A DNA stretch of 64,000 nt from Minisyncoccota bacterium (lineage in GTDB: Bacteria > Patescibacteriota > Minisyncoccia > Phycocordibacterales > UBA2100): positions 40,719 through 104,718 of the forward strand of contig DASSSZ010000005.1 of the NCBI GenBank assembly GCA_035708165.1, in the 5' to 3' direction. Below the pieces are notes generated by a model. That model was given only the letters and a program-made list of their open reading frames with translations, was not told where the DNA came from and did not search any database. Made by a program: the position numbers and the translations under genes. Of this stretch, positions 1-13,936 are shown piece by piece. The first letter of the stretch is position 1. Every line of letters begins with the position of its first letter.

Positions 1-1004
1 ACCTCGCAGAGACGACCGGCGGCCGCTATTTCAATATCAGCCTCTCCTCGGAGCACCATATCAATCCGTTCGACCTTGCCGTCCCGCGCGAGGACGAGAA
101 TCCGGCGGACGTGCTGCGGAGCAATATCATCTCGCTCGTGGGGCTGTTCCGCATCATGCTGGGCGGGCTCACGCCGGAGGAAGATGCCATCATCGACAAG
201 GCGATCACTGAGACGTACGCGCTCAAGGACATCACGGCGGATTCCAACTTCGCCGCGATCGAGCCGCCCTTGCTCTCCGATTTCGAGCTCGTGCTCTCCG
301 GCATGGAGGGGAGCGAATCGCTGGTGGCGCGGCTTTCGAAGTACACGAAGGGCACATGGTCCGGCTTCATGAACCGGCCGACGAACGTGGATATGAACAA
401 GCGCCTCGTCGTCTTCTCCGTGCGCGATATGGAAGACGACCTGAAGGCGGTCGCCATGTACATCATCACGCACCATATCTGGAACACTGTCCGCAAGGAG
501 CTCCGCAAGCGGCTGCTCGTGATCGATGAGGCCTGGTGGATGATGAAGTCCGAGGACACCGCATCCTTCCTCTTCGGGATCGCGAAGCGCGGCCGCAAGT
601 ACTATCTCGGCCTCTCCACGATCACGCAGGACGTCTCCGACTTCCTCTCATCGCCGTATGGCGTCCCGATGCTCACGAACTCCTCGATCCAGCTCCTCTT
701 GCGCCAGTCGCCGACCTCCGTCGACCTCGTGCAAGAGACTTTCAAGCTCTCCGACGAGGAGAAATATCTTCTCCTCGAGAGCGACGTGGGTGAGGGCATC
801 TTCTTCGCCGGCCTCAAGCACGTGGCTATCAAGATCATCGCGAGCTACACCGAAGACCAGATCATCACCTCCGATCCTTCGCAGATCCTTGCGATCAGGA
901 AGGCGAAGGAGGAGCTCGCGAACCAGGAGCCGGACGGCGCCGCCGCGGTGGAGGCGCCGGCCATGAGCGCGGCGGCGCAGCTCGCGGCGGGCGGCGAGAA
1001 CTAG
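1..1004 (+). CDS. VirB4/TraC/CagE-like type IV secretion ATPase, C-terminal part (5' end outside window)
   Basis: The open frame runs from position 3 with no stop and no ATG before 111. It contains Walker-B-like LLVIDEAWWMM. It also has C-terminal motifs typical of the VirB4 family (RGRKYYLGLSTITQDVSDF, VVFSVRDMEDD). Confidence 0.6.
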   Translation, partial: LAETTGGRYFNISLSSEHHINPFDLAVPREDENPADVLRSNIISLVGLFRIMLGGLTPEEDAIIDKAITETYALKDITADSNFAAIEPPLLSDFELVLSGMEGSESLVARLSKYTKGTWSGFMNRPTNVDMNKRLVVFSVRDMEDDLKAVAMYIITHHIWNTVRKELRKRLLVIDEAWWMMKSEDTASFLFGIAKRGRKYYLGLSTITQDVSDFLSSPYGVPMLTNSSIQLLLRQSPTSVDLVQETFKLSDEEKYLLLESDVGEGIFFAGLKHVAIKIIASYTEDQIITSDPSQILAIRKAKEELANQEPDGAAAVEAPAMSAAAQLAAGGEN

Positions 1005-1059
1005 CGCGCCGTGCGCCGGTGCGGCGCTTGATGCGACGTGCGCATCGCGCGGAATTCTC

Positions 1060-1377
1060 GTGCCGCGTATACTGCTTGGCATGGAACCGATCACCCAGGG
1101 TACCGGCTTCGCCATGATCGCTGCGGCGCTCGTGGTGGACGGCCTCGAGCTCATCCCGGGCGTCGACATGATCGTGGACCCGATCGCGATGTTCCTGTTC
1201 GCGCACTGGTTCGCGCACCACGGCTACTCGCTGACCAGCAGGCGGCCATTCGGCTACTTCGGCACGGCGGTGATCGAATTCATCCCGTTCATCTCCATGA
1301 TTCCCGCGTGGCTCTTCCTCGTCTGGCTCTCTATCCGCGCACAGCGGCGCGAAGCAGCGCGCGAAGGGGCGGTATAA
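1060..1377 (+). CDS. small integral membrane protein (3 predicted TM helices), unknown function
   Basis: 105-aa ORF of hydrophobic stretches. It sits directly downstream of the VirB4-like gene. Confidence 0.45.
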   Translation: MPRILLGMEPITQGTGFAMIAAALVVDGLELIPGVDMIVDPIAMFLFAHWFAHHGYSLTSRRPFGYFGTAVIEFIPFISMIPAWLFLVWLSIRAQRREAAREGAV

Positions 1378-1384
1378 TGGGCGC

Positions 1385-2458
1385 GTGACCCGCACGCCCG
1401 CAACGCGCACCTGGCTCATCGCGTTCGCGACGATCGCGATCTTCATGCTGCCCGGCGGCTCGCAGGCGATCAGCCTCCCGCTCGGCCTCTCGGGGACGCA
1501 GTACCTGCTCTCGCTTGCCGAGTCGCCGGCTGCTCCGGCGCCTGGCGAGACAGTCTTGTTCACGCTCTCGAGTACGGCGATCGACCTGCCGAGCGCGACG
1601 ATCTCCTGGTACCTCGATGGCACAGCCGAAGCGAGCGGCGTGGGCGTGACGACGTTCGCGACGCAAAGCGGCGCCGCCGGCTCGACGCACACCGTCTCCG
1701 TGGTCGCGGAGGGATCGGACGGGACGGCTGCGGAAACGAAGGCGACGCTGCGGCCTGCCGCGGTCTCGCTCCAGTGGGAAGCGGATTCCTATGTCCCGCC
1801 GTTCTACCGCGGCCGCGCGCTCCCGGCAGCAGGCACGAGCGTCACGGTGCATGCCGACGCGCAGCTCGTCGGGAGCGGTGGCGCGGCGCTGCCGGCATCC
1901 TCGATCCGGTATCAGTGGAGCGTCAACGGCACTCCGCGTGCCGACCTCTCAGGGAACGGGCGGGATACCATCACGATCGCCGGACCCATGCCGCACGGCG
2001 CGCTCGTCGTGGCCGTGACCGCCTCCGCTGATGACGGTACCTACCAGGCAGCTGCGCAAACGCGGATCGCCGCCGTGACGCCCGTCCTCGATCTCTATGC
2101 GGCAGACCCGCTCCTGGGGATCCGGTACGGCGATGCGCTCTCGAACGGCTCCACGCTCTCCGCCGGAAAGGCGACGATCGCGCTCGCGCCGTACTACATG
2201 GCTGCCGCATCGCCTGATTCGTCCGCCCTGTCGTACCGCTGGGAGGTGAACGGCGATCCTGTCCTTGCTGATCCAGGCACGCCTTCGAGGCTCACGCTCG
2301 CCCTTTCAGGGGGCGCCGCCGGTGCCGCTGCGGTCTCGCTCGCGCTTTCCGATTCCTTGGCGGCATTCCAGTCGGCGAGCGGCGCCTGGCAGCTCATGGT
2401 CTCTGCCAATGCCGCATCCACGCCGTTCGGCTCTGCGGCTAAGGCGAACCCGTTCTAA
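1385..2458 (+). CDS. secreted protein with three Ig/PKD-like repeats (GTG start)
   Basis: N-terminal signal peptide (IAFATIAIFMLPGGSQA). Three repeats each carry a W..NG motif: ISWYLDGT, IRYQWSVNGTP, LSYRWEVNGDP. GC-skewed codon usage is consistent with the coding frame. Confidence 0.5.
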   Translation: MTRTPATRTWLIAFATIAIFMLPGGSQAISLPLGLSGTQYLLSLAESPAAPAPGETVLFTLSSTAIDLPSATISWYLDGTAEASGVGVTTFATQSGAAGSTHTVSVVAEGSDGTAAETKATLRPAAVSLQWEADSYVPPFYRGRALPAAGTSVTVHADAQLVGSGGAALPASSIRYQWSVNGTPRADLSGNGRDTITIAGPMPHGALVVAVTASADDGTYQAAAQTRIAAVTPVLDLYAADPLLGIRYGDALSNGSTLSAGKATIALAPYYMAAASPDSSALSYRWEVNGDPVLADPGTPSRLTLALSGGAAGAAAVSLALSDSLAAFQSASGAWQLMVSANAASTPFGSAAKANPF

Positions 2459-2462
2459 TACC

Positions 2463-3779
2463 ATGCCTCGTCTCCCTCGCATCGATCTCGCTCGCTTCTA
2501 CCGCTACGCCATGCCCGTGACGGTCGCCGCGATCATCCTCATCCTGATCGCGCTCGGGATCTGGTTCCTGTACCTGCATGAGAAGCAGTCCGTCACGGAT
2601 GCCGTCTCCGCCGGGCGCGGCTTAGGGACGGACGTCTCGTCGGCGTTCCCGGGCGGCAGCGCGTATCAGAACGTCGTTTCCGCGGTCTCCAGCGTCTTCG
2701 GCGGCGGCACGAGCGCGACGAGCACGCCGGCCGGAGCGACGAAAGCGGCTCCGCAGCTCTGGGAAGTGGCGACCGCGCCCGCTGCCAGCATCACCTTCGC
2801 AAAGGACGGGACCAGCACCGTTGCTCGCTTCCTCGATGCGGCGAGCGGCAACATCTTCGATGCCGATCCGGCCACGAGCGTCATCGCGCGGCGCACGAAG
2901 ACGCTGATGCCGCGGATCGCGCAGGGTGCATGGTACGGCGAGGAAGGGGCCGTCCTGCGCTATGAGGACAATGCAGGCATCGAGACATTCTCCGGATCCA
3001 TCAATGCGGCGACCACCACCGGCTCGCTCTCCGCGACGGAAGCGCAGGCGCTCGCAGCGAACGGGCCGGGCGATCTCGAGGGCGCGATGCTCCCGCGCGG
3101 CATCCTCGATCTCGTCGCCGCCAGCAGCTCGATCTTCTATATCGCCCCGTATAACGGGGAGTACGCAGGCACGATCGCGAAACCGGACGGAAGCGACGCG
3201 AAGCGGATCTGGACCTCGCCCCTCGCAGAATGGCGCGCGCAGTTGGCGGGGAATCGTATTCTGCTCGTGCAGGCTGCATCCGAAGGAGTGACCGGATCGG
3301 CATACGAGCTCGGCACGGACGGCTCATCGAGCCTCGTGCTCGCCAACCTGCCAGGGCTCGCCGCGCGCGAGAATGCGACGACGCACGCGATCCTCTACAG
3401 CACCGTGGGCGGATCGGGTGCGATCACGCTTTCGGTGCGTGCATCGGATGGGAAGGTGCAGACGCTCCCGTTCGCGACGTTCGCTGATAAGTGCGCATGG
3501 GACCCGGCCGCGCCGTCTGTCGTCTACTGCGCCGTGCCGCACGCGATCCCGCAGGGGAGCGTGCTCCCAGACGCGTGGTATCGTGGCGAAGTCCACTTCG
3601 ACGATGCGATTTGGCGCTTCGATACCGCGACGGGCTCCGTCTCGCAGGCATACGACCCGCATGCCGCGAACCGCTCGCTTGATATACTGGATCCGATGGT
3701 GAGCCCGGATGGCACCTACTTGGCATTCCGCGATGCGGCAAGCGGCACCGGCTGGGTGCTCCGGCTCACGGCGAAGTGA
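2463..3779 (+). CDS. membrane-anchored protein with a possible PD40/TolB-like beta-propeller segment
   Basis: ATG at 2463 follows the stop of the upstream ORF. A single N-terminal TM helix (VTVAAIILILIALGIWFLYL) is present. The C-terminal motif SPDGTYLAFRDAASGTGW resembles a PD40 repeat. The track ORF 2265..3779 is an upstream in-frame extension. Confidence 0.45.
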   Translation: MPRLPRIDLARFYRYAMPVTVAAIILILIALGIWFLYLHEKQSVTDAVSAGRGLGTDVSSAFPGGSAYQNVVSAVSSVFGGGTSATSTPAGATKAAPQLWEVATAPAASITFAKDGTSTVARFLDAASGNIFDADPATSVIARRTKTLMPRIAQGAWYGEEGAVLRYEDNAGIETFSGSINAATTTGSLSATEAQALAANGPGDLEGAMLPRGILDLVAASSSIFYIAPYNGEYAGTIAKPDGSDAKRIWTSPLAEWRAQLAGNRILLVQAASEGVTGSAYELGTDGSSSLVLANLPGLAARENATTHAILYSTVGGSGAITLSVRASDGKVQTLPFATFADKCAWDPAAPSVVYCAVPHAIPQGSVLPDAWYRGEVHFDDAIWRFDTATGSVSQAYDPHAANRSLDILDPMVSPDGTYLAFRDAASGTGWVLRLTAK

Positions 3780-3780
3780 T

Positions 3781-5280
3781 ATGCGCGCACGACTCTTCCC
3801 ACCCCTGCTCATGTTCGCGCTCGCGGCGTGCATCGTAGCCGTCGCGTTGCCGCTTTCCGCCCATGCTGCCGTGCAGGCAGATTGCATCGATACGGCCGCT
3901 GGGTGCGCGACGGCAGGGAGTGCCGCCGGCGCATTCACGCCGCTTACTGATCTCTCGAACACCCCGTTCGCATCCCTGCTGACGGCGAACGAGACCCTCC
4001 CGAAGTTCCTCCGCTGGGCATTCAATTTCGCAATCAGTCTCGGCGCGCTCCTGGCTGTGATCGAGATCGCCTTCGGCGGCTGGCAGTACATGACCGCGGA
4101 AGCGTTCAATAAGAAATCGGATGCGCGCAAGCGCATCCAGAACGCACTCATCGGGCTCCTCATGCTGCTCTCGACCATACTCGTCCTCAATCAGATCAAT
4201 CCGCAGATCACCAGCCTCTCCCTCTTCGAGGACGCGGCACCCGCAGTCGCGCAGACTGGTACGACGGGTGCGACCGATACCGGGACGCTCACCCACGATC
4301 CTACGGGAAGCGGAAAGATCTGCGCGTACCAGGGCACCGACGCCAGCGGCGTCGCGTCATACCGCTGCTTCACGACGCTCGCTGCATGCGAATCCGTCAT
4401 CGGCGCCGCAGGGAATGCGTGCGTGCCATACAACTCCGAGGGTTCGGAAACGACCGCTCCGCTGCCAGGCGAGTACTGCGCGCCGGATGGCAAGACGCAG
4501 GCAGGCGGGAATGTGCTCACGACGCAGTATCGCTGCTTCAGCCAGCAGGCGGCCTGCGAGACAGCCATGCCGGACGCGACCTGTGTCTCCGGAGACTCGC
4601 TCAGCGATAGCTATACGAATGAAGCCTGGGTCACGCAGACCGAATGCAGCACGCGCGGCCCGGGCTGGCAGCCCGTCGCGCCGGCGCTCTGCGGCGCGAG
4701 TACTGCCGGCAGCGGGGTATGCTGCGGCATGGCGAGCACGGTGACGGTCCAAGGCAACGGCAGCCTCACTGGTCACGCGGCGCTTGTCACTGATTTCCCG
4801 GTAGGGTACTGGTGCGCTGACAATCAGGCCGGCGGCTTCGACTGCTTCGCGCAGCAAAGCGCATGCAGCGCGAAGTACTCGCAGGGCTGCGGGCAGTACG
4901 ATGTCGCGTTCCCGGCCGTAGATGCCTCCTCGCAGATTACCGCGCCGCTGTGGTGCGATATCGAGAACGATACGTATACGTGCTCCGCGAGCCAGGACAT
5001 CTGCACGAACACCTTCGGCAGCGCATGCAGCCAGGTTGAGCCGCAGCAGCAACAGCAGCAACAGACCGTGACGCAACAGGCTTACACCGATCCGCATTTC
5101 TATACTGATCTCCAGGTCGCCGAAGCAGGCGCAACCCCGTTGAATGAATGCGAGAGTCTCACTGGCAAGGCTGGCTACGAAGTGGCGCCCGCGAGCGTCT
5201 GCAGCAGCATCAATCTCCTGGGTTCGTCGGGCATCTGCTGCGGATTGGTCTCGTCGAGCGGACAGTCGGACGGGCAATAG
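3781..5280 (+). CDS. VirB2/TrbC-like pilin-type two-helix module fused to a Cys-rich internally repeated extracellular domain
   Basis: Signal peptide (LMFALAACIVAVALPLSAHA) is followed by an amphipathic/hydrophobic pair (WAFNFAISLGALLAVIEIAFGGWQYMTAE ... IQNALIGLLMLLSTILVL) resembling conjugative pilins. Repeated Cys motifs are YRCF...AAC E, VCCGMAS and ICCGLVS. A polyQ run (QQQQQQQ) comes from a CAG/CAA tract at ~5044-5064. Confidence 0.45.
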   Translation: MRARLFPPLLMFALAACIVAVALPLSAHAAVQADCIDTAAGCATAGSAAGAFTPLTDLSNTPFASLLTANETLPKFLRWAFNFAISLGALLAVIEIAFGGWQYMTAEAFNKKSDARKRIQNALIGLLMLLSTILVLNQINPQITSLSLFEDAAPAVAQTGTTGATDTGTLTHDPTGSGKICAYQGTDASGVASYRCFTTLAACESVIGAAGNACVPYNSEGSETTAPLPGEYCAPDGKTQAGGNVLTTQYRCFSQQAACETAMPDATCVSGDSLSDSYTNEAWVTQTECSTRGPGWQPVAPALCGASTAGSGVCCGMASTVTVQGNGSLTGHAALVTDFPVGYWCADNQAGGFDCFAQQSACSAKYSQGCGQYDVAFPAVDASSQITAPLWCDIENDTYTCSASQDICTNTFGSACSQVEPQQQQQQQTVTQQAYTDPHFYTDLQVAEAGATPLNECESLTGKAGYEVAPASVCSSINLLGSSGICCGLVSSSGQSDGQ

Positions 5281-5294
5281 GGAAGAGTCCGGGA

Positions 5295-5334
5295 GGAAAA
5301 AGTAATATCCATTAAAATGGATATTACTTTTTCC
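5295..5334. terminator. AT-rich perfect 18-bp inverted repeat (ggaaaaagtaatatccat taaa atggatattactttttcc), probable bidirectional terminator
   Basis: Perfect palindrome read directly from the sequence. It lies between the stop of 3781..5280 and the promoter-like TTGACC(17 bp)CATACT upstream of 5396. Confidence 0.5.
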
Positions 5335-5395
5335 TGCCATCGAATTTTCCCCACCGTGCGGTTGACCCTCAAGATGAGGAGTTCATACTGCCCCT

Positions 5396-8300
5396 ATGAG
5401 TGACACCGCGTTCCGCATGCACGCCATGCGCGATGAATACGCGTGTTTTCTGGCGGCCGTATGTGCCGCCCTCGTCTTTTCCCTTACGCCGCTGCTTGTG
5501 CACGCAGCCGATATCCATGCGATTGATCACCTGTTCACGGGCGGCGGGGCGGTCATCCATGATGGCGATACGGTTACGAGAGATTCATTCTCATCCCTGA
5601 GCCCTGTCTGGCAGGCGTATAGCGATTGGCCCTATGCCGTGCCGGATGGGCAGGGAGCGACGGCAGTCTTCCTCGGGACATTCGGGGATGTGGCTGGCGG
5701 GGCACTCTCTCCTGATGTGAACTACTACTATTACGACAATGGCGGGTACGGATGGCCGGCGGGAGACTCGGTCCAGGCATTCCATGCACCGTTTCCCGAG
5801 CTCGGTGCGCTCAATGCGCCGTCTGCGACCTATACCGTCATGCAAGCCAAGCTGGCGACCAGCTCGGCGCATGACTGGAAGTCTGCGATCGAGTGGTTCG
5901 CATCCGGCGGCGCGACTAGTACGCCGCCGGTCGATTACTCGTTCCTGACGTTCCATTACGTCGCGACAAGCTCGCCGGAATTGATCGCTGATGGCATTTC
6001 GAGCGTGAGGTATGAAGGATTGACGATTCATCCGAGCGATACGGTATACCTGGATGATCTTACGCCGCGTCCGGCGAGCGCCTATGCGACCGGGAATCCA
6101 TGGGACGTAGTGACTGATTGGCCGGGTGCTGTAAGCGGCGGGAATGATGCTGATATCTATCTGTTCCATGGTACGTTCGGGAACCTGGCAGGTGCGCCTG
6201 CGCTCGAGGAAAACTATTATGATCAGGAGATAAATATCCTCCCATCCGGGCAGCCTGATCGTGAAGCAACGCCATCCGGCAATACGTTCTTCGGGTCGTT
6301 CGGTTCCACGACGCCGGACGGGAATTATACGGTGATGGTCGATGAACGAGACCCGAAGGATGGCCCGCTTTCGGGTGCTGGCATTCCCGAATGGTTCGCA
6401 TCCGGCGGTGCGACGGGCACGCCGCCCCTCAAGTACGCCCTGCTGACGTTCACGTATAAGAAGTATCACGAGTGCTGCTCGAATGTGGCATTCCTGCCGG
6501 GCATCGAGGGAAGCGTTCTCAAGGAGGGGGATCAGACCGTCTGGCCGCCGCAGCTCCGTCACTCAGTCGACGATTTGGCCGCGCTCTCATTCAATCCGGA
6601 TGGTACGCCGACACGAGCTGATATCCAGGTCGCAGGAATCGTGAATCAGGCTGATATCGGCTTTTGGAATATACCGGGTATCGATACGGCACCTGATATC
6701 TACCAGGGCTTCACTGATCATATGAATAATCTCGTGACGAGCGGGACGATCAGGGAATGGAAGCCGCTGCCGTATGATTGGCGATTCTCTCCCGAGTACA
6801 TCGTATCGCATGACGTGATGGCAACGAGCGGGCCGGTGAGCCTGACATCTGAGGTCGAGCAACTTGCTGCTGATTCGCCGACTGGCAAAGTGACGCTGGT
6901 CGCGCACTCATACGGTGGTCTTGTCGGCAAGGCGCTCATTAAGGCGCTGATGGATAAGGATGAAGGTGGTCTTATTGATAATTACGTGATGATTGCATCG
7001 CCACAGGAGGGGACACCCCAAACAGTTGGTGAGATGTTGCACGGAGAGAGGGCCAATCTACCCATTCAGATTCCTGGTACTAGTATTAATATCGGAAGCC
7101 TCACAACAAAAACACAAGGACGAGCTCTCGGCATGTACTTGCCTATGGCCTATATTCTCCTTCCCTCCGCTAACTATCTTCAGGACGTGGCATATCAACC
7201 TGTCGAATTCGATGCCTCCGCGCCACAGACCCAGAGCTGGCGTGAGACATGGGGCTCCGCACTAAGTACGCTGCAGGAATTGGATGATTTCCTGACCGGG
7301 AACGGTCCGGATCGGGCAAGGCCTTCTGCGGACGATACGCAGGACCCGGCAGTGCTTGATGCCAGTCAGCTGCAAACTGCGCAGGCATACCATGCTGCGT
7401 TCGATGATTTTTCGTTCGCAAGTACGACGCATGTCATCCAGATTGCCGGGTGGGGGAATCCGACAATCCAAGGAATCCTGTATACGCAAGATCAAGGGAG
7501 GCTCGATTACCGTCCAATGCTGAGTCTGGAAGGGGATGATACGGTCATGGCTCCGAGCGCAGTATCGACCGAGACGAGCTCTACGAGCAGCTACTATTTC
7601 AATCTAAACGAATATCATGCCTTGACTGACCATTCGAGTGGGCATGCATTACTCCCGGCATCCGCACCGGTCCTTGTCGAGCTCGATACGATCATCCAGA
7701 AGCTGCCGATCGTCCTGAATCAGTATTTCACGGCTACGAAACCGGATCTCTCCAGCCTGCCGAAGGAGCTCCTGGCGAGCGTGCACTCTCCGCTCTCGCT
7801 CAGCGCAACCGATGCTTCGGGCAACTATACAGGCCTGACTCCTGGGCAGGATCCGGATACGGATATGCGCCTCATCACGAACGGGATACCAGGAAGCCGA
7901 TACCTCACGTATGGCGACGGCAAGTACCTCATTGTCCCCGAAGGGAACACCTACACCTTCTCGCTCGCCGGCATGGCGACCGGCCCTGCAACTATCGAAT
8001 TGCAGGAGATGGCGAACGGCACGACGACCACACTCGCGACCTATTCGGATGTTCCGGTCTCGACTACGACGAAGGCGACATTCACGATCACGGCGACAAC
8101 GACGACGCCAGATATCTCGCTCGATCAGAATGGGGACGGGGTGCCAGATGCGACTGTCGCACCTGATGGAAGCTCTCAGGCGCCAGACCAGATTGTCTCG
8201 GAACTCGAAGCGGCAATACAATCGCTCGATATCGCCAAGCGGTACGAGAAGGATCTATACAGGCAGGCAAAGAAGCTGGGAAAGCTCGTGACGAGGCTTG

Positions 8301-8596
8301 AGAAGGATGATGCGAAAGCCGCAAAGCAGCAAAGCCAACAGAAGCGACGCGCTAGCACGATTTCGCTCGGCAGTTTCTTCAACATCGCACCCATTCAATT
8401 CGATGTGCCGGATGGAGATTTCCTGGGAACATTATTCGATACGACAATGCACCGCACGGAGGTCAGTGCGATTCGCATCTCCACCGACGTGCTGAAGCAG
8501 GTGATTGAGCAGTATGCGCGCCGAAGCATCCTGACATCGTCTGATGAAAAGAAGCTGGATATATTGCTTGGCGATCTTATGGACGCGATACGATAA
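5396..8596 (+). CDS. large secreted alpha/beta-hydrolase-fold protein (lipase/LCAT/PGAP1-like GHSxG) with N-terminal duplicated domains and a C-terminal coiled-coil
   Basis: Signal peptide is present. The nucleophile-elbow motif is VTLVAHSYGGLVGKAL. An internal duplication pairs FLGTFGDVAGG with FHGTFGNLAGA. A second pair is EWFASGGATSTPPVDYSFLTFHYV and EWFASGGATGTPPLKYALLTFTYK. The C-terminal segment is K/E-rich and helical. The central ~1.7 kb has visibly lower GC than the ends. Confidence 0.6.
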   Translation: MSDTAFRMHAMRDEYACFLAAVCAALVFSLTPLLVHAADIHAIDHLFTGGGAVIHDGDTVTRDSFSSLSPVWQAYSDWPYAVPDGQGATAVFLGTFGDVAGGALSPDVNYYYYDNGGYGWPAGDSVQAFHAPFPELGALNAPSATYTVMQAKLATSSAHDWKSAIEWFASGGATSTPPVDYSFLTFHYVATSSPELIADGISSVRYEGLTIHPSDTVYLDDLTPRPASAYATGNPWDVVTDWPGAVSGGNDADIYLFHGTFGNLAGAPALEENYYDQEINILPSGQPDREATPSGNTFFGSFGSTTPDGNYTVMVDERDPKDGPLSGAGIPEWFASGGATGTPPLKYALLTFTYKKYHECCSNVAFLPGIEGSVLKEGDQTVWPPQLRHSVDDLAALSFNPDGTPTRADIQVAGIVNQADIGFWNIPGIDTAPDIYQGFTDHMNNLVTSGTIREWKPLPYDWRFSPEYIVSHDVMATSGPVSLTSEVEQLAADSPTGKVTLVAHSYGGLVGKALIKALMDKDEGGLIDNYVMIASPQEGTPQTVGEMLHGERANLPIQIPGTSINIGSLTTKTQGRALGMYLPMAYILLPSANYLQDVAYQPVEFDASAPQTQSWRETWGSALSTLQELDDFLTGNGPDRARPSADDTQDPAVLDASQLQTAQAYHAAFDDFSFASTTHVIQIAGWGNPTIQGILYTQDQGRLDYRPMLSLEGDDTVMAPSAVSTETSSTSSYYFNLNEYHALTDHSSGHALLPASAPVLVELDTIIQKLPIVLNQYFTATKPDLSSLPKELLASVHSPLSLSATDASGNYTGLTPGQDPDTDMRLITNGIPGSRYLTYGDGKYLIVPEGNTYTFSLAGMATGPATIELQEMANGTTTTLATYSDVPVSTTTKATFTITATTTTPDISLDQNGDGVPDATVAPDGSSQAPDQIVSELEAAIQSLDIAKRYEKDLYRQAKKLGKLVTRLEKDDAKAAKQQSQQKRRASTISLGSFFNIAPIQFDVPDGDFLGTLFDTTMHRTEVSAIRISTDVLKQVIEQYARRSILTSSDEKKLDILLGDLMDAIR

Positions 8597-8601
8597 CTTA
8601 T

Positions 8602-9078
8602 ATGAGCAAATCAAATCCATTTCTTCTTTTATCGCTCGGAATCTCGATAGCGATGATTGCTCTGGGGTATATTTTTGCTCACGCAAGTGCGTTTGGTTTA
8701 TGTCATGATGACCTAGCAAGAAATATCTTTGATATTTACTGTGACAACTTCTATTGGTACATCGGGAATGCTCTTATTTATGGCATGTCAGCTCTCGCAA
8801 TAGTCTTCTTCGCTCTCCTGCTCGTTCCCAAGGCATTCTCCTGGTGGTGGAAATTCGCAATCTGGTTCGTACCGCTTGATGGATTCATCCTCATTGGGGT
8901 TAGGCCGTCCGATGCGATTTTCAGTCTCGAGCCTTCGCCGGATGAGATGTACCTTCTATTCAGCGGGCTCTACGTCGTCATTTCGCTCATCATCATTATC
9001 GCAGCCTGGCTGTGGCGAAAACCCAGCATGGAGCTGAATAAGAACACACCCGGTCGTGAGAGTCGGATATTGGCTTGA
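8602..9078 (+). CDS. small membrane protein, paralog A1 (AFSWWWKFAIWFVPL motif)
   Basis: Hydrophobic 158-aa ORF in the low-GC island. Its 3' end reads into repeat element R1. Confidence 0.55.
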   Translation: MSKSNPFLLLSLGISIAMIALGYIFAHASAFGLCHDDLARNIFDIYCDNFYWYIGNALIYGMSALAIVFFALLLVPKAFSWWWKFAIWFVPLDGFILIGVRPSDAIFSLEPSPDEMYLLFSGLYVVISLIIIIAAWLWRKPSMELNKNTPGRESRILA

Positions 9079-9108
9079 AGAGCGGGCACTAGTGTTTTTC
9101 CTGCCAGG
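9031..9108. repeat. repeat element R1 (degenerate copy) of a ~70-78 bp intergenic element
   Basis: Shares gagctgaataagaa(a)cacccgg(c)tcgtgagag(t/c)cgg...ttggcttgaagagcgggcactagtgtttttcctgcc with copies at 9727-9797 and 10272-10350. Confidence 0.7.
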
Positions 9109-9185
9109 AGCGGTTCGCGCCTAGATGCGCAGAAGAAGCTGCATAACTTGCTTGAAGATCTTACGAACGCAGTACAATAAGGACC

Positions 9186-9668
9186 ATGAATGCTCCATTT
9201 AATGACCTCCTGTTTTATTTCGTTCTTTTTTGCGCGCAATTTATTCCTTGGATTGTATTCCTGGGGGTTCCTGGGAAAAAAAGAGGAATCTCTCCGTCAC
9301 TTAGATGGATTTGGGCAACCCCGATTGCGGTTCTGACAATATTGGAAGTATTGGCGTATTTGGGATATGAATGGAGCCTCGGGATATTGTGGTTTATTTT
9401 TCCACTCCTTTTTTCCATTCTATCTACTGTAGTCTCATTATCTTATGTCTCACGACCCATTAAAGGACTGCGCCTGGCATTTCCGCTGATACTATTTTTC
9501 CAGGCTCTAGTGGCAATTTTCGCCTTTATCTTTGGTTATCTTGCAGCTGCGTTCTTTACGGGGATTGCATCTGTAATCAGTGGCGGAGCTTTCATGCAAG
9601 GGTTCGGATGGATTGTTCTACTTCCATTTTTATTAACTGGCAATTTTCAGATTAACTTTTGGATGTAA
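9186..9668 (+). CDS. multi-pass membrane protein (4-5 TM), unknown function
   Basis: 160-aa hydrophobic ORF. It is preceded by the repeated promoter-like block gctgcataacttgcttgaagatc...agtacaat. Confidence 0.5.
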   Translation: MNAPFNDLLFYFVLFCAQFIPWIVFLGVPGKKRGISPSLRWIWATPIAVLTILEVLAYLGYEWSLGILWFIFPLLFSILSTVVSLSYVSRPIKGLRLAFPLILFFQALVAIFAFIFGYLAAAFFTGIASVISGGAFMQGFGWIVLLPFLLTGNFQINFWM

Positions 9669-9726
9669 ATAACTCCGGCTCATGGGTGCGGTTTTTGTTT
9701 GAAGATATTTCAGGTCATACAAAACA

Positions 9727-9797
9727 AATAAGAAACACCCGGCTCGTGAGAGCCGGGTGTTGGCTTGAAGAGCGGGCACTAGTGTTTTTCCTGCCAG
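9727..9797. repeat. repeat element R2 with perfect 10-bp stem / GTGA (GNRA) tetraloop hairpin (cacccggctc gtga gagccgggtg) and downstream T5
   Basis: Direct reading. Best-conserved copy of the element. Confidence 0.75.
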
Positions 9798-9882
9798 TAA
9801 CGGTTTCGAACTCATTCGAATTCAGATGCGCTGAAGCTGCATAATTTGCTTGAAGAGCTAAAAAGCACAGTACAATGAGAAC

Positions 9883-10278
9883 ATGTTGAAGAGGGACCCT
9901 AAAGTAATCTTTATATTGCTTGCAGTCATTTCCGCAGCCATTGCGTGCGTCGGGTTACTCGGAATGGACCTCATCGGACCCGCTCTCGTGTACGGGATGG
10001 GTGCCTTGGCGGTCGCATTCATTGCGCTTGCGCTGGTTCCGGGAGCGTTTTCTTGGTGGTGGAAATTCGCAATTTGGTATGTGCCTCTTGCTTGCTATCT
10101 TTTTGTCAGGATTATAGTGAGTGACATAAAACTGAAATCAATACCGATGTGGAATTTTTTTAATCCACCAGCATATATTCAATTTCTCTGGATTGCCGGC
10201 ACGTATTTATTTGTCAGCTGTATCTTAGTGGCCCTTTTCCAGCTATTACACCGGACTGAAGCATCGCACCGGAGCTGA
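9883..10278 (+). CDS. small membrane protein, paralog A2 (AFSWWWKFAIWYVPL motif)
   Basis: 131-aa ORF with clear protein-level similarity to 8602..9078. It is preceded by the same promoter-like block (ttgaag N15 tacaat). Confidence 0.55.
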   Translation: MLKRDPKVIFILLAVISAAIACVGLLGMDLIGPALVYGMGALAVAFIALALVPGAFSWWWKFAIWYVPLACYLFVRIIVSDIKLKSIPMWNFFNPPAYIQFLWIAGTYLFVSCILVALFQLLHRTEASHRS

Positions 10279-10350
10279 ATAAGAAACACCCGGCTCGTGA
10301 GAGTCGGGTGCTAGCTTGAAGAACTGTTCGCTAGGGTTTTTCCTGCCGGG
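10272..10350. repeat. repeat element R3 (hairpin with one G-U wobble)
   Basis: gagctgaataagaaacacccggctcgtgagagtcgggtg...ttttcctgccgggg. It overlaps the 3' ends of the convergent genes 9883..10278(+) and 10331..10768(-). Confidence 0.7.
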
Positions 10351-10768
10351 GAGCGGTTTCGGATGCATTGCGCGAAGAAAGCTTCGCGAGCTGCTCCGGC
10401 AGGCAGCCGATGCAGCCGAAACCCAGCAGGATGGCGATCATTCCAAGTTCGCTGAACTCCCGGCCGGAGAATTGCAGCATGATACCCACTCCGAACAGGT
10501 AATAGCCGAGCCCGACCAGGATCCATATCGTGAAAGCTGCAGTTCTTGCGGGTTCGCTGGCTGGGCTGAGGCGCCCATTGCTCAGCCGGATCCTGCTCGT
10601 GAAGATCATGATCGTGCCCACCAGAACGAAGGCGGAGAGCACGTGCGGGCCGGCTATGGCGACCAGGAGCGGCGAGAGCATCACGAGGACGCAGTTGCCG
10701 AAGAGGGCCGGGAGCTTATGGCGTGCGTACCAGCTGCGAACCGGGACGAACGCGCGGGGTCGGTACAT
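10331..10768 (-). CDS. integral membrane protein (4 TM), unknown function
   Basis: 145-aa ORF with native (high) GC and hydrophobic segments. It is convergent with the island genes. Confidence 0.5.
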   Translation of the reverse strand: MYRPRAFVPVRSWYARHKLPALFGNCVLVMLSPLLVAIAGPHVLSAFVLVGTIMIFTSRIRLSNGRLSPASEPARTAAFTIWILVGLGYYLFGVGIMLQFSGREFSELGMIAILLGFGCIGCLPEQLAKLSSRNASETAPRQEKP

Positions 10769-10883
10769 CAGATACCTCCATGTATGCTGCGGCCGTTATA
10801 GCATCGCTCGCGCAGGTGCACAATCGGCGGCGCGTGCGGCGCGTATCGTATAATGAGGGCAACGCGGCGCAGCGGCTTCATCT

Positions 10884-12617
10884 ATGTACATCAGCGACAC
10901 GCACCTCAAGGAATTCCTCCTCGATGCAGGCCTCGTCTCGAAGCAGGCGTTCGAGGATGCGGGCAGGAAGGCGAAGGAGAACGGCAACTCGATCGGCGAG
11001 GAGCTAGTCTCGGCCGGCGTCATCGGCGAGGACGAGCTGCGCCGCACGCAGGCGTACATCCTCGGCATCCCGTTCGTGAACCTCGCGGGCACGAAGATCG
11101 ATTACGACACGCTCTCTCTCATCCCCGAGCCGGTCGCGCGGCGCAACAACATCATCTCGTACAAGCAGGACGGCGACGACCTGCAGGTGGCGATGCTCAA
11201 TACGGACGACCTCGAGGCCATCGATTTCATCAAGAAGAAGACGCACCTCAAGATACAGCCGCGCCTCACGGATGTGGCCTCCATCAAGTACGCGCTCAAG
11301 CTCTACCAGCAATCGCTCAAGGACAATCTCGGCGAGGTCATCCGCAAGGAGACGGAGGCGATGGCGCAGATGCCGGACGGCGAGGAGGATCCGCGCAAGC
11401 TCGCAGAAGGCCTGCCGGCCGTGCGCGTGGTGGATACGCTGCTGCGCCATGCGATCGCGCAGAATGCATCGGATATCCATATCGAGCCGCAGGAGGAGAC
11501 ACTGATCATCCGCTACCGCATCGACGGGCTCCTGCATGATGCGATGATCCTGCCGAAGACGGCGCACGCCGGCATCGTGGCGCGCATCAAGGTCCTCACG
11601 AACCTGCGTCTCGACGAGAAGCGTCTCCCGCAGGATGGCCGCTTCGCGATCGAGGAGGCGGGGGAGCGTGTCTCATTCCGCGTTTCGATCCTGCCCACTT
11701 ACTACGGCGAGAAGATCGTGATCCGCATCCTGCGCGAGCGGCAGAGCGGCTTCACGCTCGAGAAGCTTGGCTTCCATGGCGACGCGCTCGAGCAGATCCA
11801 CGACGCGATGCGCCGCACGACGGGCCTCATCCTCACCACCGGCCCGACAGGCGCCGGAAAGTCCACCACGCTCTACACGCTGCTCGACCTCCTGAATACG
11901 CCGGATGTGAACATCTCCACGGTGGAAGACCCGATCGAGTACCAGATGCAGCGCATCAATCAGACGCAGGTCCAGCCGGATATCGGCTTCACATTCGCTT
12001 CCGGCCTGCGCAGCCTGGTGCGCCAGGACCCGGACATCATCATGGTGGGCGAGATCCGCGACGGCGAGACGGCCGCGCTCGCCATCAATGCCGCGCTCAC
12101 CGGCCACCTCGTGCTCTCCACGCTCCATACCAATAGCGCCGCTGGCGCCATCCCGCGCCTGATCGACATGGGCATCGAGCCGTTCCTCCTCGCCTCGACC
12201 TTGCGGGTGATCATCGGCCAGCGTCTCGTGCGCAAGCTCTGCGATGACAAGGCGGAGCGCCCGCTCACGCGCGATGAGACGAGCCGCCTCGAAGAGGCGT
12301 TCGATCTCGGCGTCGTCCTCAATGCCCTCAAGGAAGAGAAGGTCGTGGGCAAGGAAACGACCTGGAAGAACGTGCCCTTCTTCGGCCCGGCCGAGAACGG
12401 CAAGTGCCCGGACGGCTATTCCGGCCGCGAAGGCATCTACGAGGTGCTGAACGTGACGGAAGACATCAAGACGCAGATCACCGGCGGCGCGACGTCCGAT
12501 GACATCGCGGCGACGGCCAAGCAGCATGGCATGCTCACCATGGGCGAGGACGGCATCTTCAAGGCAGCACAGGGGATCACGACGATCGAGGAAGTGCTTC
12601 GTGTCATCAGCGAGTAG
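10884..12617 (+). CDS. pilB: type IV pilus / type II secretion assembly ATPase PilB/GspE family
   Basis: Walker A GPTGAGKSTTLY, Asp box and His box are present. A C-terminal tetracysteine motif is CDDK...C..C. An N-terminal GspE_N-like domain is present. Length is 577 aa. Confidence 0.95.
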   Translation: MYISDTHLKEFLLDAGLVSKQAFEDAGRKAKENGNSIGEELVSAGVIGEDELRRTQAYILGIPFVNLAGTKIDYDTLSLIPEPVARRNNIISYKQDGDDLQVAMLNTDDLEAIDFIKKKTHLKIQPRLTDVASIKYALKLYQQSLKDNLGEVIRKETEAMAQMPDGEEDPRKLAEGLPAVRVVDTLLRHAIAQNASDIHIEPQEETLIIRYRIDGLLHDAMILPKTAHAGIVARIKVLTNLRLDEKRLPQDGRFAIEEAGERVSFRVSILPTYYGEKIVIRILRERQSGFTLEKLGFHGDALEQIHDAMRRTTGLILTTGPTGAGKSTTLYTLLDLLNTPDVNISTVEDPIEYQMQRINQTQVQPDIGFTFASGLRSLVRQDPDIIMVGEIRDGETAALAINAALTGHLVLSTLHTNSAAGAIPRLIDMGIEPFLLASTLRVIIGQRLVRKLCDDKAERPLTRDETSRLEEAFDLGVVLNALKEEKVVGKETTWKNVPFFGPAENGKCPDGYSGREGIYEVLNVTEDIKTQITGGATSDDIAATAKQHGMLTMGEDGIFKAAQGITTIEEVLRVISE

Positions 12618-12718
12618 CAGTAGGCGCTTGCTGATCCTCTCTCGCCAATCATCCCATCCCATCCGCATCCACACGCCGTGCGTCTCGCTCGCACAGCGTA
12701 CGCGTATACTGGTAAGGA

Positions 12719-13936
12719 ATGACGCAGTACCGCTACACGGCGCAGAAGATGGGCGGGGAGACCTACACCGGCGCAGCGGAAGCGCCGGATCGCTTCGCGC
12801 TCTATGAGATGATCCGCCGCGAGGGCGGGAAGGTCGTCTCGGTGGAAGAGGACAGCACGAGCAAGAAGCTCTCCTTCGCGTACTGGAACGCGAAGATCGC
12901 CACCGTTCCCGAGCGGGAGAAGATCCTCTTCGCGCGCAATCTCGCGGCGATGCTGAAGGCAGGCCTCGCGCTCTCCCGCGCGCTCTCAGTGATCGAGCGG
13001 CAGACCAGGCAGGCGAAGTTCGCGAGCGTGCTCGCGCAGATCGGCAGCGAAGTGCGCCGCGGCACCTCGTTCCATGACGCGCTCGCGCAGTACCCGCACG
13101 TCTTCTCGCGCATCTTCATCGCGATGGTGAAGGCGGGCGAGGAGAGCGGCAACCTGCCCGGCTCGCTCGTCACCATCAGCGATCAGATGAACGAGTCGTA
13201 TACGCTCAAGAAGAAGGTGCGGAGCGCGATGATCTATCCCACCATCATCATCGTGGCGATCATCGGCATCGGTGCTGTGCTCCTCACGACCGTGGTGCCG
13301 ACATTGGCCGAGACCTTCAAGGAGCTCGGCGCTCAGCTGCCTGCGACGACGCAGTTCGTCATCAATCTCTCTGATTTCCTCGTGGAGAACACGCTGCTCG
13401 CGCTCGCCATCGCGATCATCGTCATCGTCGGGTTCATGGCGGGCCTGCGCACGACGATCGGCAAGCGGCTCTCGGCCCAGGTCGCCGTGCACATGCCGCT
13501 CATCGGTCCGGTCGTGAAGGAGGTGAACGCGGCGCGCACCGCCCGCACGCTCGGGAGCCTCCTGCACTCGAGCGTGGACATGCTGGCGGCCCTCGAGATC
13601 ACGACGGAGGTCGTGCAGAACCCGCTCTTCCAGGATGTCTTGCGCGAGGCGCATGAGGCTGTCGCCAAGGGCGATCAGCTGCCCGCTGTCTTCATGCGCC
13701 ATGAGAACCTCTATCCGCCGCTCGTCGGCGAGATGCTCTCGGTCGGCGTCGAGACGGGTCAGCTCTCGGAGATGCTGACGCGGCTCGCGGAGATCTACGA
13801 GGAGAGTGTCTCGACGACGACGAAAGACATGTCGACCATCATCGAGCCGTTCCTCATGCTCATCATCGGCAGCGCCGTCGGCTTCTTCGCGGTGGCCATG
13901 ATCAGCCCGATCTACTCGCTCTCGAGCGCGATCTAG
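12719..13936 (+). CDS. pilC: type IV pilus platform protein PilC/GspF family
   Basis: Two T2SS-F repeats flank three TM helices. It lies immediately downstream of pilB, preceded by RBS aagga and a TATACT -10. Confidence 0.9.
   Translation: MTQYRYTAQKMGGETYTGAAEAPDRFALYEMIRREGGKVVSVEEDSTSKKLSFAYWNAKIATVPEREKILFARNLAAMLKAGLALSRALSVIERQTRQAKFASVLAQIGSEVRRGTSFHDALAQYPHVFSRIFIAMVKAGEESGNLPGSLVTISDQMNESYTLKKKVRSAMIYPTIIIVAIIGIGAVLLTTVVPTLAETFKELGAQLPATTQFVINLSDFLVENTLLALAIAIIVIVGFMAGLRTTIGKRLSAQVAVHMPLIGPVVKEVNAARTARTLGSLLHSSVDMLAALEITTEVVQNPLFQDVLREAHEAVAKGDQLPAVFMRHENLYPPLVGEMLSVGVETGQLSEMLTRLAEIYEESVSTTTKDMSTIIEPFLMLIIGSAVGFFAVAMISPIYSLSSAI

Follow-up and report, generated by a model that had tools for sequence, protein, structure and literature searches.

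Polymorphic toxin loci, such as those encoding CdiA-CT/CdiI and Rhs-CT/RhsI, carry orphan toxin-immunity modules, and the Tli immunity genes that partner Tle lipases lie adjacent to Tle, often in several tandem copies. Tandem immunity paralogs with conserved homology blocks are known in type VII secretion system (T7SS) loci (PMC9484751), and a lipase of Pfam family PF02450 has been found in a type VI secretion system (T6SS) vgrG island (PMC3942780). Patescibacteria are devoid of lipid synthesis, and an attack on the host envelope has been proposed as the role of their phospholipases (PMC11665869); according to the same perspective, a mechanism of lipid uptake or breakdown has not as yet been identified for these organisms (PMC11665869). 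Here, we describe a locus in a 64-kb stretch of DNA from a Minisyncoccota bacterium (contig DASSSZ010000005.1, positions 40,719 to 104,718; "the window" below, to which all coordinates refer) in which a gene for a secreted LCAT/LPLA2-like lipase is followed by an array of small membrane-protein genes. Nothing relevant on LCAT in Patescibacteria was found in the literature, and a search for a description of the module likewise found none.

The lipase gene (5396..8596) is followed by three open reading frames (ORFs), A (8602..9078), B (9186..9668), and C (9883..10278), which are annotated as hypothetical proteins VFL98_02780, VFL98_02785, and VFL98_02790; these four genes and all features below are on the + strand unless stated otherwise. 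A reading made from the letters of the window (the sequence-only reading) had proposed three small membrane-protein genes here, and three + strand ORFs were found at 8602-10278. We consider it highly probable (roughly 85%, for the anatomy and its evolution jointly) that these genes are the downstream part of a horizontally acquired, Patescibacteria-specific two-part module, consisting of a lipase gene and then a small four-helix membrane-protein gene, and that the membrane-protein part has expanded here to three self-contained cassettes.

The composition of the region is foreign to its surroundings. The GC content of the window as a whole is 63.4%, and that of 500-nt windows outside 5300-10400 is 0.645 (standard deviation, 0.030; minimum, 0.554; n = 579), whereas 500-nt windows inside 8600-10350 have a GC content of 0.457 (range, 0.418 to 0.494; z = −6.3), so that every background window has a higher GC content than the island mean. 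The stretch 8597-10383 has a GC content of 45.7%. Codon usage agrees, with GC content at third codon positions (GC3) of 0.54, 0.385, and 0.515 in ORFs A, B, and C, compared to 0.89 and 0.92 in the type IV pilus genes PilB and PilC. Both the low-GC island and the horizontal acquisition that had been proposed from the sequence are thus borne out, the former lying well outside background variance. The start proposed for the island, at 8600, was too far downstream: the lipase gene, with a GC3 of 0.63 compared to 0.77 to 0.92 in the flanking genes, is itself part of the system, and because of this value and its linkage to the A/C family in every comparable locus, it is assigned to the foreign island, which spans ∼5.3 kb to 10383.

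The lipase gene encodes a 1,066-residue alpha/beta-hydrolase that matches PF02450 (LCAT) at residues 435 to 600 with 37.4 bits (gathering cutoff, 21; E = 2.3e-9), and precomputed PF02450 matches are recorded on all 107 clusters of lipase homologs. With a profile of 17 homologs, the nearest PDB structures were group XV phospholipase A2 and LCAT (E = 7e-5). S505, D714, and H750 are invariant in the 17 homologs, with D714 and H750 named as triad members from residue order, and the nucleophile motif AHSYGG conforms to the small-x-S-x-G elbow. The product is therefore a putative phospholipase A or acyltransferase. Like LCAT and lysosomal phospholipase A2 (group XV; PDB 4x90), it has the AHS(M/Y)GG motif and invariant Ser, Asp, and His; unlike them, the bacterial proteins are 800 to 1,300 residues long, with only ∼130 to 165 residues aligning. 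One hydrophobic segment at the N terminus (residues 14 to 40) is followed by a cleavage-like site read by eye between VHA and AD, and an N-terminal signal peptide and Sec-dependent secretion are predicted. The catalytic domain is central and conserved, and the C terminus is a conserved helical tail; homologs have variable N-terminal modules and a C-terminal extension that is either helical or beta rich. In the window lipase, the N-terminal region (5396-6470, residues ∼40 to 360) shows an apparent internal duplication of ∼170 residues, both halves of which end in WFASGGAT.TPP..Y..LTF.Y, and homologs hold other N-terminal modules at this place, for example beta-helix/NosD or DNRLRE.

ORFs A and C belong to one family. 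ORF A (158 residues, four helices; family hidden Markov model [HMM] E = 9e-49) and ORF C (131 residues; family HMM E = 1e-29) are 44% identical over 86 residues (E = 8e-21), and AFSWWWKFAIW[FY]VPL is present in both, which confirms the paralogy and the motif given by the sequence-only reading. At the DNA level, the two align at 67% identity over only 119 nt. The AlphaFold2 model of ORF A, based on a 42-sequence family alignment, had a predicted local distance difference test (pLDDT) score of 87 and showed four transmembrane helices and, in the first loop, a small beta-hairpin that bears two cysteines in most family members; ORF C lacks the two-cysteine segment. By the positive-inside rule, the N and C termini and the conserved AFSxWKKF turn are probably cytoplasmic. 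The family comprises 44 clusters among 5.8 billion proteins; all of its named members are patescibacterial, and Pfam domains are absent throughout. A search of all 42 aligned members against Pfam returned only subthreshold generic membrane DUFs, ORFs A, B, and C had no Pfam domain match, ORF A had no NCBIfam or PADLOC match, and Foldseek found no PDB match with E < 1 to the ORF A model. Thus, ORFs A and C represent a new, undescribed family of ∼135-residue proteins with four transmembrane helices and the motif AFSxWKKFAIWFVPL, which is now defined and fit for annotation.

ORF B (160 residues) is a polytopic membrane ORFan and constitutes a heterologous cassette. A relationship to A and C was ruled out by BLASTP, by profile comparison (hhalign probability, 1%), and by DNA alignment, and a frame-shifted family gene was ruled out because the family HMM found nothing in the six frames of the region. 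Word-indexed search and exhaustive phmmer search (5.8 billion clustered proteins and 1.84 billion representatives) returned only the self match and one low-complexity match. Since T makes up 0.49 of codon position 2 and an open frame of this length was reached in only 5 of 5,000 shuffles, ORF B is a credible membrane-protein gene despite its ORFan status. Its model was all-helical with low confidence (pLDDT, 63).

Next, the genomic setting of the family was examined with a family profile, which retrieved 14 genome loci and 20 metagenome loci. Of the loci with upstream DNA, all 14 from genomes have an LCAT homolog directly before the family gene, and all 16 from metagenomes have one preceding it; the gap is usually 0 to 13 nt or an overlap, and all such loci are from Patescibacteria. 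The only variation in this linkage is in L021, where a 116-residue nonfamily membrane ORF lies between the lipase gene and the family gene. A search from the lipase side found a family gene beside a 38%-identical lipase homolog (L041) and, beside a homolog with a divergent tail (L042), a gene for a 259-residue membrane protein with a weak version of the motif. The conserved small gene directly 3' of a large exported-protein gene, which is typical of polymorphic toxin loci, is therefore present here.

The segments between the cassettes tie them to the lipase gene. Two blocks upstream of ORFs B and C (9135-9184 and 9833-9882) are 82% identical and had been described as a near-identical promoter-like pair. 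That pair is real, and a third copy that had been missed (8551-8600; 72% identical) is the 3' end of the lipase gene itself. The founding copy comprises the last 16 codons of that gene (8549..8596, ending in KKLDILLGDLMDAIR and the stop codon), and the gene end translates as SSDEKKLDILLGDLMDAIR followed by the stop. The linker and orphan lipase 3' end preceding ORF B (9116..9185) read through to LDAQKKLHNLLEDLTNAVQ and a stop, and those preceding ORF C (9806..9882) read through to SDALKLHNLLEELKSTVQ and a stop. Lipase homologs in other genomes end in a conserved helix, KGKISxxDAQEILxLLEQIENAL plus the stop, and the translated window blocks match the family-wide C-terminal consensus DAQxxLxLLExxxxAL plus the stop; both downstream blocks fit this consensus no worse than the resident lipase end does. 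Since the third copy is the lipase end and the blocks fit the C-terminal consensus, the downstream blocks are displaced 3' ends of the lipase gene family (the last 16 to 20 codons) rather than free-standing promoter motifs, although a promoter role may remain. The two intergenic spacers that contain them, IG1 and IG2, align over ∼150 nt (score, 154).

Sequences that could drive expression lie within these same blocks. TACGAT is found 7 nt before the start of ORF A, and TACAAT is found 7 nt before that of ORF B and 6 nt before that of ORF C. The window and its nearest relative, L003, have six cassettes between them, and in each of the six TACAAT or TACGAT ends 6 to 7 nt before the ATG and a convincing Shine-Dalgarno sequence is lacking. 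Most single-copy loci have a TATAAT that spans the lipase stop codon, 6 to 10 nt before the partner ATG. Between the two remnants that precede ORFs B and C, the hexamer and the 21 nt on the upstream side hardly differ, and the intervening 16 nt are variable. These signals fit leaderless-mRNA promoters embedded in the lipase 3' end; each cassette would then be transcribed separately as a leaderless mRNA from the hexamer and terminated at the element, termed R, that follows it. A promoter within the lipase 3' end would explain why every retained duplicate carries a piece of it. Elsewhere in the window, TAnnnT ends 5 to 9 nt upstream of the longest-ORF start in 11 of 63 high-GC3 ORFs, where ∼2 would be expected from base composition, and a GGAG/GAGG core was found near the candidate start in only 26 of the 63; leaderless transcripts may be common in this genome.

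Most related loci are single copy, and arrays were found in the window, L003, L001/L033, L004, L021, and L026. The arrangement of a lipase remnant followed by a membrane-protein gene recurs in L003, L021, L001, and L004. Orphan units consisting of a lipase 3' fragment and a small gene, as known from polymorphic toxin loci, number two each in the window and L003 and one each in L021, L001, and L004. In L003, whose lipase is 51% identical to that of the window, three family genes each follow a copy of the lipase 3' end (LLEELKKALQS, LLEELKIAVQS, and LLENLKKTLQS, each ending at a stop codon); the first remnant is frameshifted further upstream and is thus decaying DNA, not a conserved peptide. In L021, the nonfamily 116-residue ORF lies between the lipase gene and a unit of remnant and family gene. 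In L001, a 62-codon ORF between two copies of the family gene is a lipase C-terminal fragment (tblastn E = 0.011). The L026 array holds a 238-residue protein (5734-6450) with the family motif (FRAWWGFARWFVPV) at its N terminus followed by a Thr-rich, soluble-looking region, and a 105-residue ORF 2.2 kb downstream (7890-8207) repeats a 97-nt motif segment at 80% identity.

The L004 locus is informative with respect to the origin of such units. Its remnant is a 104-codon open frame that is 40% identical to foreign lipase tails (E ∼1e-24) and 22% identical to the tail of its own lipase (E = 0.47), and the lipase-proximal membrane gene of this locus is the divergent one. These observations are most simply read as displacement of the resident unit downstream by a foreign unit of lipase 3' region and membrane gene. 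The window array also appears to predate its arrival in this genome, since L003 already has three cassettes and ORF A pairs with L003 copy 1 (55% identity) and ORF C with L003 copy 3 (56%), with the lipases at 51%. The GC3 of ORF B, the lowest of the three, fits a later replacement of the middle cassette.

In comparison with the described systems, the locus is most like the contact-dependent growth inhibition (CDI) and Rhs loci in that a large exported-protein gene is followed directly by a small cognate gene, units of large-gene 3' fragment and small gene lie downstream, and L004 gives evidence of an incoming foreign unit displacing a resident one. It is unlike them in several respects: the displaced fragment encodes a helical tail of 16 to 104 codons rather than a toxin domain; the conserved catalytic domain lies in the middle of the protein; delivery domains, whether CDI, Rhs, LXG, or of another kind, are absent, with no LXG or WXG domain found in the lipase with Pfam; and the small proteins are predicted integral membrane proteins. 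The T7SS strings of TsaI, EsaG, and TipC likewise consist of nonidentical small paralogs beside a secreted-protein gene in a monoderm, and TsaI, the partner of TspA, is a small polytopic membrane protein like A and C (PMC9484751, PMC7456083). The toxins of those strings are antibacterial, and their conserved blocks promote recombination, gain, and loss (PMC9484751, PMC7456083). In contrast to those strings, this locus has no T7SS, WXG, or LXG context, and its lipase has a predicted Sec signal; A, B, and C show no family relation to the T7SS proteins and no Pfam match to TsaI/DUF443 or EsaG/DUF600; and the conserved blocks are intergenic and derive from the lipase 3' end, whereas those of the strings lie within immunity genes. 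As with Tle1-4, the enzyme is a serine alpha/beta-hydrolase lipase, of a kind that is used against bacterial membranes in those systems (PMC3942780), with a weak match of the window lipase to the Pfam model of Tle3 (E = 0.12). However, Tli are periplasmic proteins or lipoproteins whereas the partners here are predicted four-helix membrane proteins, and Tle are delivered by the T6SS in diderms whereas this enzyme would be secreted by Sec in monoderm-like Patescibacteria. By analogy, the evolutionary logic appears to be that of CDI/Rhs orphan modules and T7SS immunity strings without their defining domains, delivery systems, or immunity families. Polymorphic-toxin-like logic would then be found here in a different phylum, with different proteins and without a specialized secretion system.

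We tentatively favor a role for the membrane proteins as effector-immunity-like protectors against the cell's own secreted phospholipase (a probability of about 40%). An immunity-like function was among the possibilities named by the sequence-only reading, and it leads among the functional readings on the strength of the cassette and orphan-module anatomy. The basis is that this anatomy (a conserved pair of large and small genes, orphan 3' fragments, heterologous genes in the slots, and signals for autonomous expression) matches effector-immunity loci and that a host-aimed phospholipase would threaten the producer's own host-lipid membrane. The membrane proteins would shield the producer's cytoplasmic membrane, built from scavenged host lipids, from its own and variant phospholipases, and the additional cassettes would serve as orphan immunity alleles of the kind found in polymorphic toxin loci. 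The module would be a testable candidate for how epibionts attack host membranes without destroying their own, a candidate that pairs a conserved secreted phospholipase-like enzyme with a dedicated, unannotated membrane-protein family. The arrays further suggest that the partner gene and the lipase 3' end are a hotspot of horizontal exchange.

Several observations weigh against this reading. The family is approximately as conserved as the lipase, which is unusual for an arms-race immunity protein, and its most conserved motif, AFSxWKKFAIWFVPL, lies in the predicted cytoplasmic turn and third helix, where it is unexposed. The short extracellular loops make direct occlusion of a 1,000-residue enzyme hard to picture. 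True toxin systems commonly include free-standing orphan immunity genes, and none of the loci retrieved showed a family gene separated from a lipase gene. The variable C-terminal part of the lipase is a helical tail with no recognizable toxin domain: neither this tail nor the beta-rich domain that takes its place in some homologs gave a toxin-family match, and the variable C-terminal toxin domain that follows a conserved delivery region in polymorphic toxins is absent from the lipase. Three distant LCAT homologs (26% to 31% identity) have no partner gene. As for the expression signals, the −35 region is poor, with a spacing of 15, 16, or 19 nt depending on the hexamer chosen; for this reason, the blocks were missed by a consensus scan for promoters and terminators, in which counts were no higher than in shuffles. 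PADLOC defense-system models gave no match at E ≤ 0.1 to A, B, C, or the lipase, and searches of phage and plasmid collections were negative; together with the Pfam and NCBIfam results, this leaves the phage-exclusion proteins and transporter subunits that had also been suggested for these genes without support.

A possible, if somewhat unlikely, alternative is that the four-helix protein is a docking, anchoring, or regulatory partner that positions the secreted lipase on the epibiont surface, for example via its C-terminal tail. Tail and partner would then coevolve as cognate pairs; the further cassettes would hold earlier partners that have been displaced and now do little. The tight, mostly one-to-one and sometimes overlapping coupling of the genes is as expected under such an arrangement, as are the similar conservation of family and lipase, the absence of family genes without a lipase gene, and the joint change of tail type and membrane-protein type in L004. 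Yet the lipases of L008 (5761-7965) and L014 (4011-7946), in which the helical tail is replaced by a ∼200-residue beta-rich domain, retain a family gene 4 to 6 nt downstream, and nonhomologous membrane proteins (ORF B and the 116-residue ORF of L021) occupy the same slots. The extra cassettes moreover retain long open frames, the −10-like hexamer, and hairpins, which would not be expected in dead remnants.

A broader view, which we regard as unlikely, is that lipase and partner form the missing host-lipid harvesting apparatus of Patescibacteria, in which units of the C-terminal region and partner are exchanged between lineages by recombination as an adaptation to new hosts or rivals. The phospholipase A or transacylase would remove acyl chains or lysolipids from the membrane of the host, and the partner would either make the host-derived epibiont membrane refractory or take up the products. 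If so, a polymorphic effector system would have been invented independently in the Candidate Phyla Radiation (CPR). A narrower version, in which the membrane protein is a lipid-handling accessory that takes up or flips the lysolipids and fatty acids that the lipase frees from host membranes, the paralogs differing in substrate, strikes us as decidedly unlikely. It would suit organisms that lack lipid synthesis and an identified route of lipid uptake or breakdown and whose cells are enriched in lysolipids (PMC11665869), the similarity of the lipase to phospholipase A2/transacylase, and the intramembrane or cytoplasmic, unexposed position of the top conserved family motif. Against it, the proteins show no likeness in sequence or fold to a transporter, scramblase, or flippase, a four-helix bundle of 130 residues is small for a transporter unless oligomeric, and transport accessories do not typically come in arrays that include orphan enzyme 3' ends and ORFan substitutes.

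Two routes of array growth are proposed: duplication or displacement of units of lipase 3' end and membrane gene and a swap of cassette content between conserved flanks, the latter of which would account for ORF B. Heterologous cassettes between the same flanks are seen with ORF B in the window and with the 116-residue ORF in L021. A simple, decaying local tandem duplication without cassette logic, the flanks being alike through recency, is improbable. A recent duplication is seen in L001, whose two copies are 85% identical as proteins and 97% identical over 295 nt of DNA, and a shared AAGAAGCT microhomology is present where the lipase 3' end and the spacers start aligning. However, A and C are 44% identical while their flanks are ∼85% to 90% identical, B is unrelated to either, and the pairing of A and C with L003 copies 1 and 3 indicates an old and maintained array. 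The tandem duplication claimed by the sequence-only reading therefore holds for the A/C paralogs and for cassettes with conserved flanks but was not a simple event.

The R elements lie at the other end of the cassettes, at 9037..9115 (R1), 9727..9805 (R2), and 10278..10356 (R3). Gapped local alignments of the three copies scored 154, 101, and 100, far above the shuffle maxima of 22 to 31, and R1 and R2 are ∼90% identical, with two 1-nt indels and a 33-nt exact core in common. R2 consists of a perfect 12-bp hairpin with a GUGA loop and then a conserved 3' half; R3 retains the hairpin via a G-U pair, and R1, a spacer copy, has a degraded hairpin. The stem is GC rich and 10 to 12 bp long in R2 and R3, and the fold z scores were −4.45 (R2), −2.60 (R3), and −0.08 (R1). 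Copies R1 to R3 of a 70- to 78-bp element had been placed after each gene; the copies align well, but the conserved unit is ∼150 nt, comprising R, the linker, and the lipase 3' block up to the next ATG, and the first 42 nt of R1 lie within ORF A. The last 14 codons of ORF A (9037-9078, ELNKNTPGRESRILA and the stop) are thus encoded by R1, and a similar peptide-like reading, NKKHPARESRVLA and a stop, is out of frame in R2 and R3; because of this out-of-frame reading, the 5' half of R may itself descend from a gene end. A degenerate extra copy suspected by eye at 9669-9726 was rejected, as its alignment score merely equaled the shuffle maximum. The best match in Rfam 15 (8000-11000, E ≤ 10) reached 24.8 bits compared to a gathering score of 49, and the R core (28-nt degenerate), which had been suggested as a search target beyond this locus, was not found in JGI metagenome contigs or IMG/VR. 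We read R as a cassette terminator and linker, homogenized within the array, and not as a mobile or recombination element. A hairpin also follows each of the L003 cassettes, but these hairpins are unrelated to one another.

An integron-like or other site-specific cassette system with R as an attC-like recombination site, although suggested by short, often promoter-proximal ORFs with variable cargo and atypically low GC content, each followed by a repeat (∼80 nt here and ∼60 to 140 nt in integrons), and by an 11- to 12-nt TTTTTCCTGCC(A) in all R copies and at the island left edge, is very improbable, since no RYYYAAC or GTTRRRY core site occurs on either strand of IG1, IG2, or IG3, R folds as a local 10- to 12-bp hairpin and a weak second stem with unpaired ends rather than as an element-wide imperfect palindrome, no integrase or recombinase family was found among the eight long neighboring ORFs scanned (111-13936), each cassette seems to be served by a promoter of its own, the repeats are locus specific (the R core as stated above and the 11-mer absent from 45 related loci), and in L003 the lipase 3' remnants are conserved between cassettes and the post-gene sequences are not.

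The borders of the island were also mapped. At 10383, homology to the other spacers ends inside a further remnant, the truncated start of another orphan tail (10357..10383, reading TGCGCGAAGAAAGCT), and host-like GC content returns; the array is therefore cut at its right edge. A host-like 145-residue membrane ORF (10331-10768, − strand; GC3, 0.79) converges on the array, and its last ∼17 codons are encoded by R3 and the truncated remnant; arrival of the island may have replaced the original 3' end of this ORF. On the left, an AT-rich, perfect 19-bp hairpin (5294..5339; fold z = −8.65) lies just upstream of the lipase gene and may be the left border. The 3' arm of the hairpin, together with three further bases, spells TTTTTCCTGCC(A), the 11- to 12-mer that R1 to R3 also contain; exact copies of the 11-mer number only four in the window, at 5328, 9095, 9785, and 10337. 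Beyond the 12-mer, the region upstream of the lipase gene showed no significant similarity to the spacers. The copies at 5328 and 10337 may be a direct repeat that brackets the island or a convergent terminator sequence.

Beyond these borders, the eight long ORFs scanned matched TraG-like, PKD-like, LCAT, T2SSE, or T2SSF families or had no match. Upstream of the lipase gene lie a fragment of a TraG/VirB4-like P-loop ATPase gene (111-1004), a gene for a PKD-like protein (1385-2458), and a gene for a Cys-rich secreted protein of 523 residues (3709-5280) that weakly matches a pilin-like conjugal transfer family; on the downstream side are PilB and PilC of the type IV pilus. With TraG-like and pilin-like genes on one side and PilB/PilC on the other, the lipase module is situated between two cell-surface machineries. 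At other loci, the lipase gene is immediately preceded by a gene for a Y1 (IS200-like) transposase (L041, 3322-3996), and the array is followed by a 315-residue ORF with a DPPY motif, which by eye resembles a DNA methyltransferase, and then by a 176-residue ORF (L021, 3883-5357); these neighbors hint that the module occupies variable regions.

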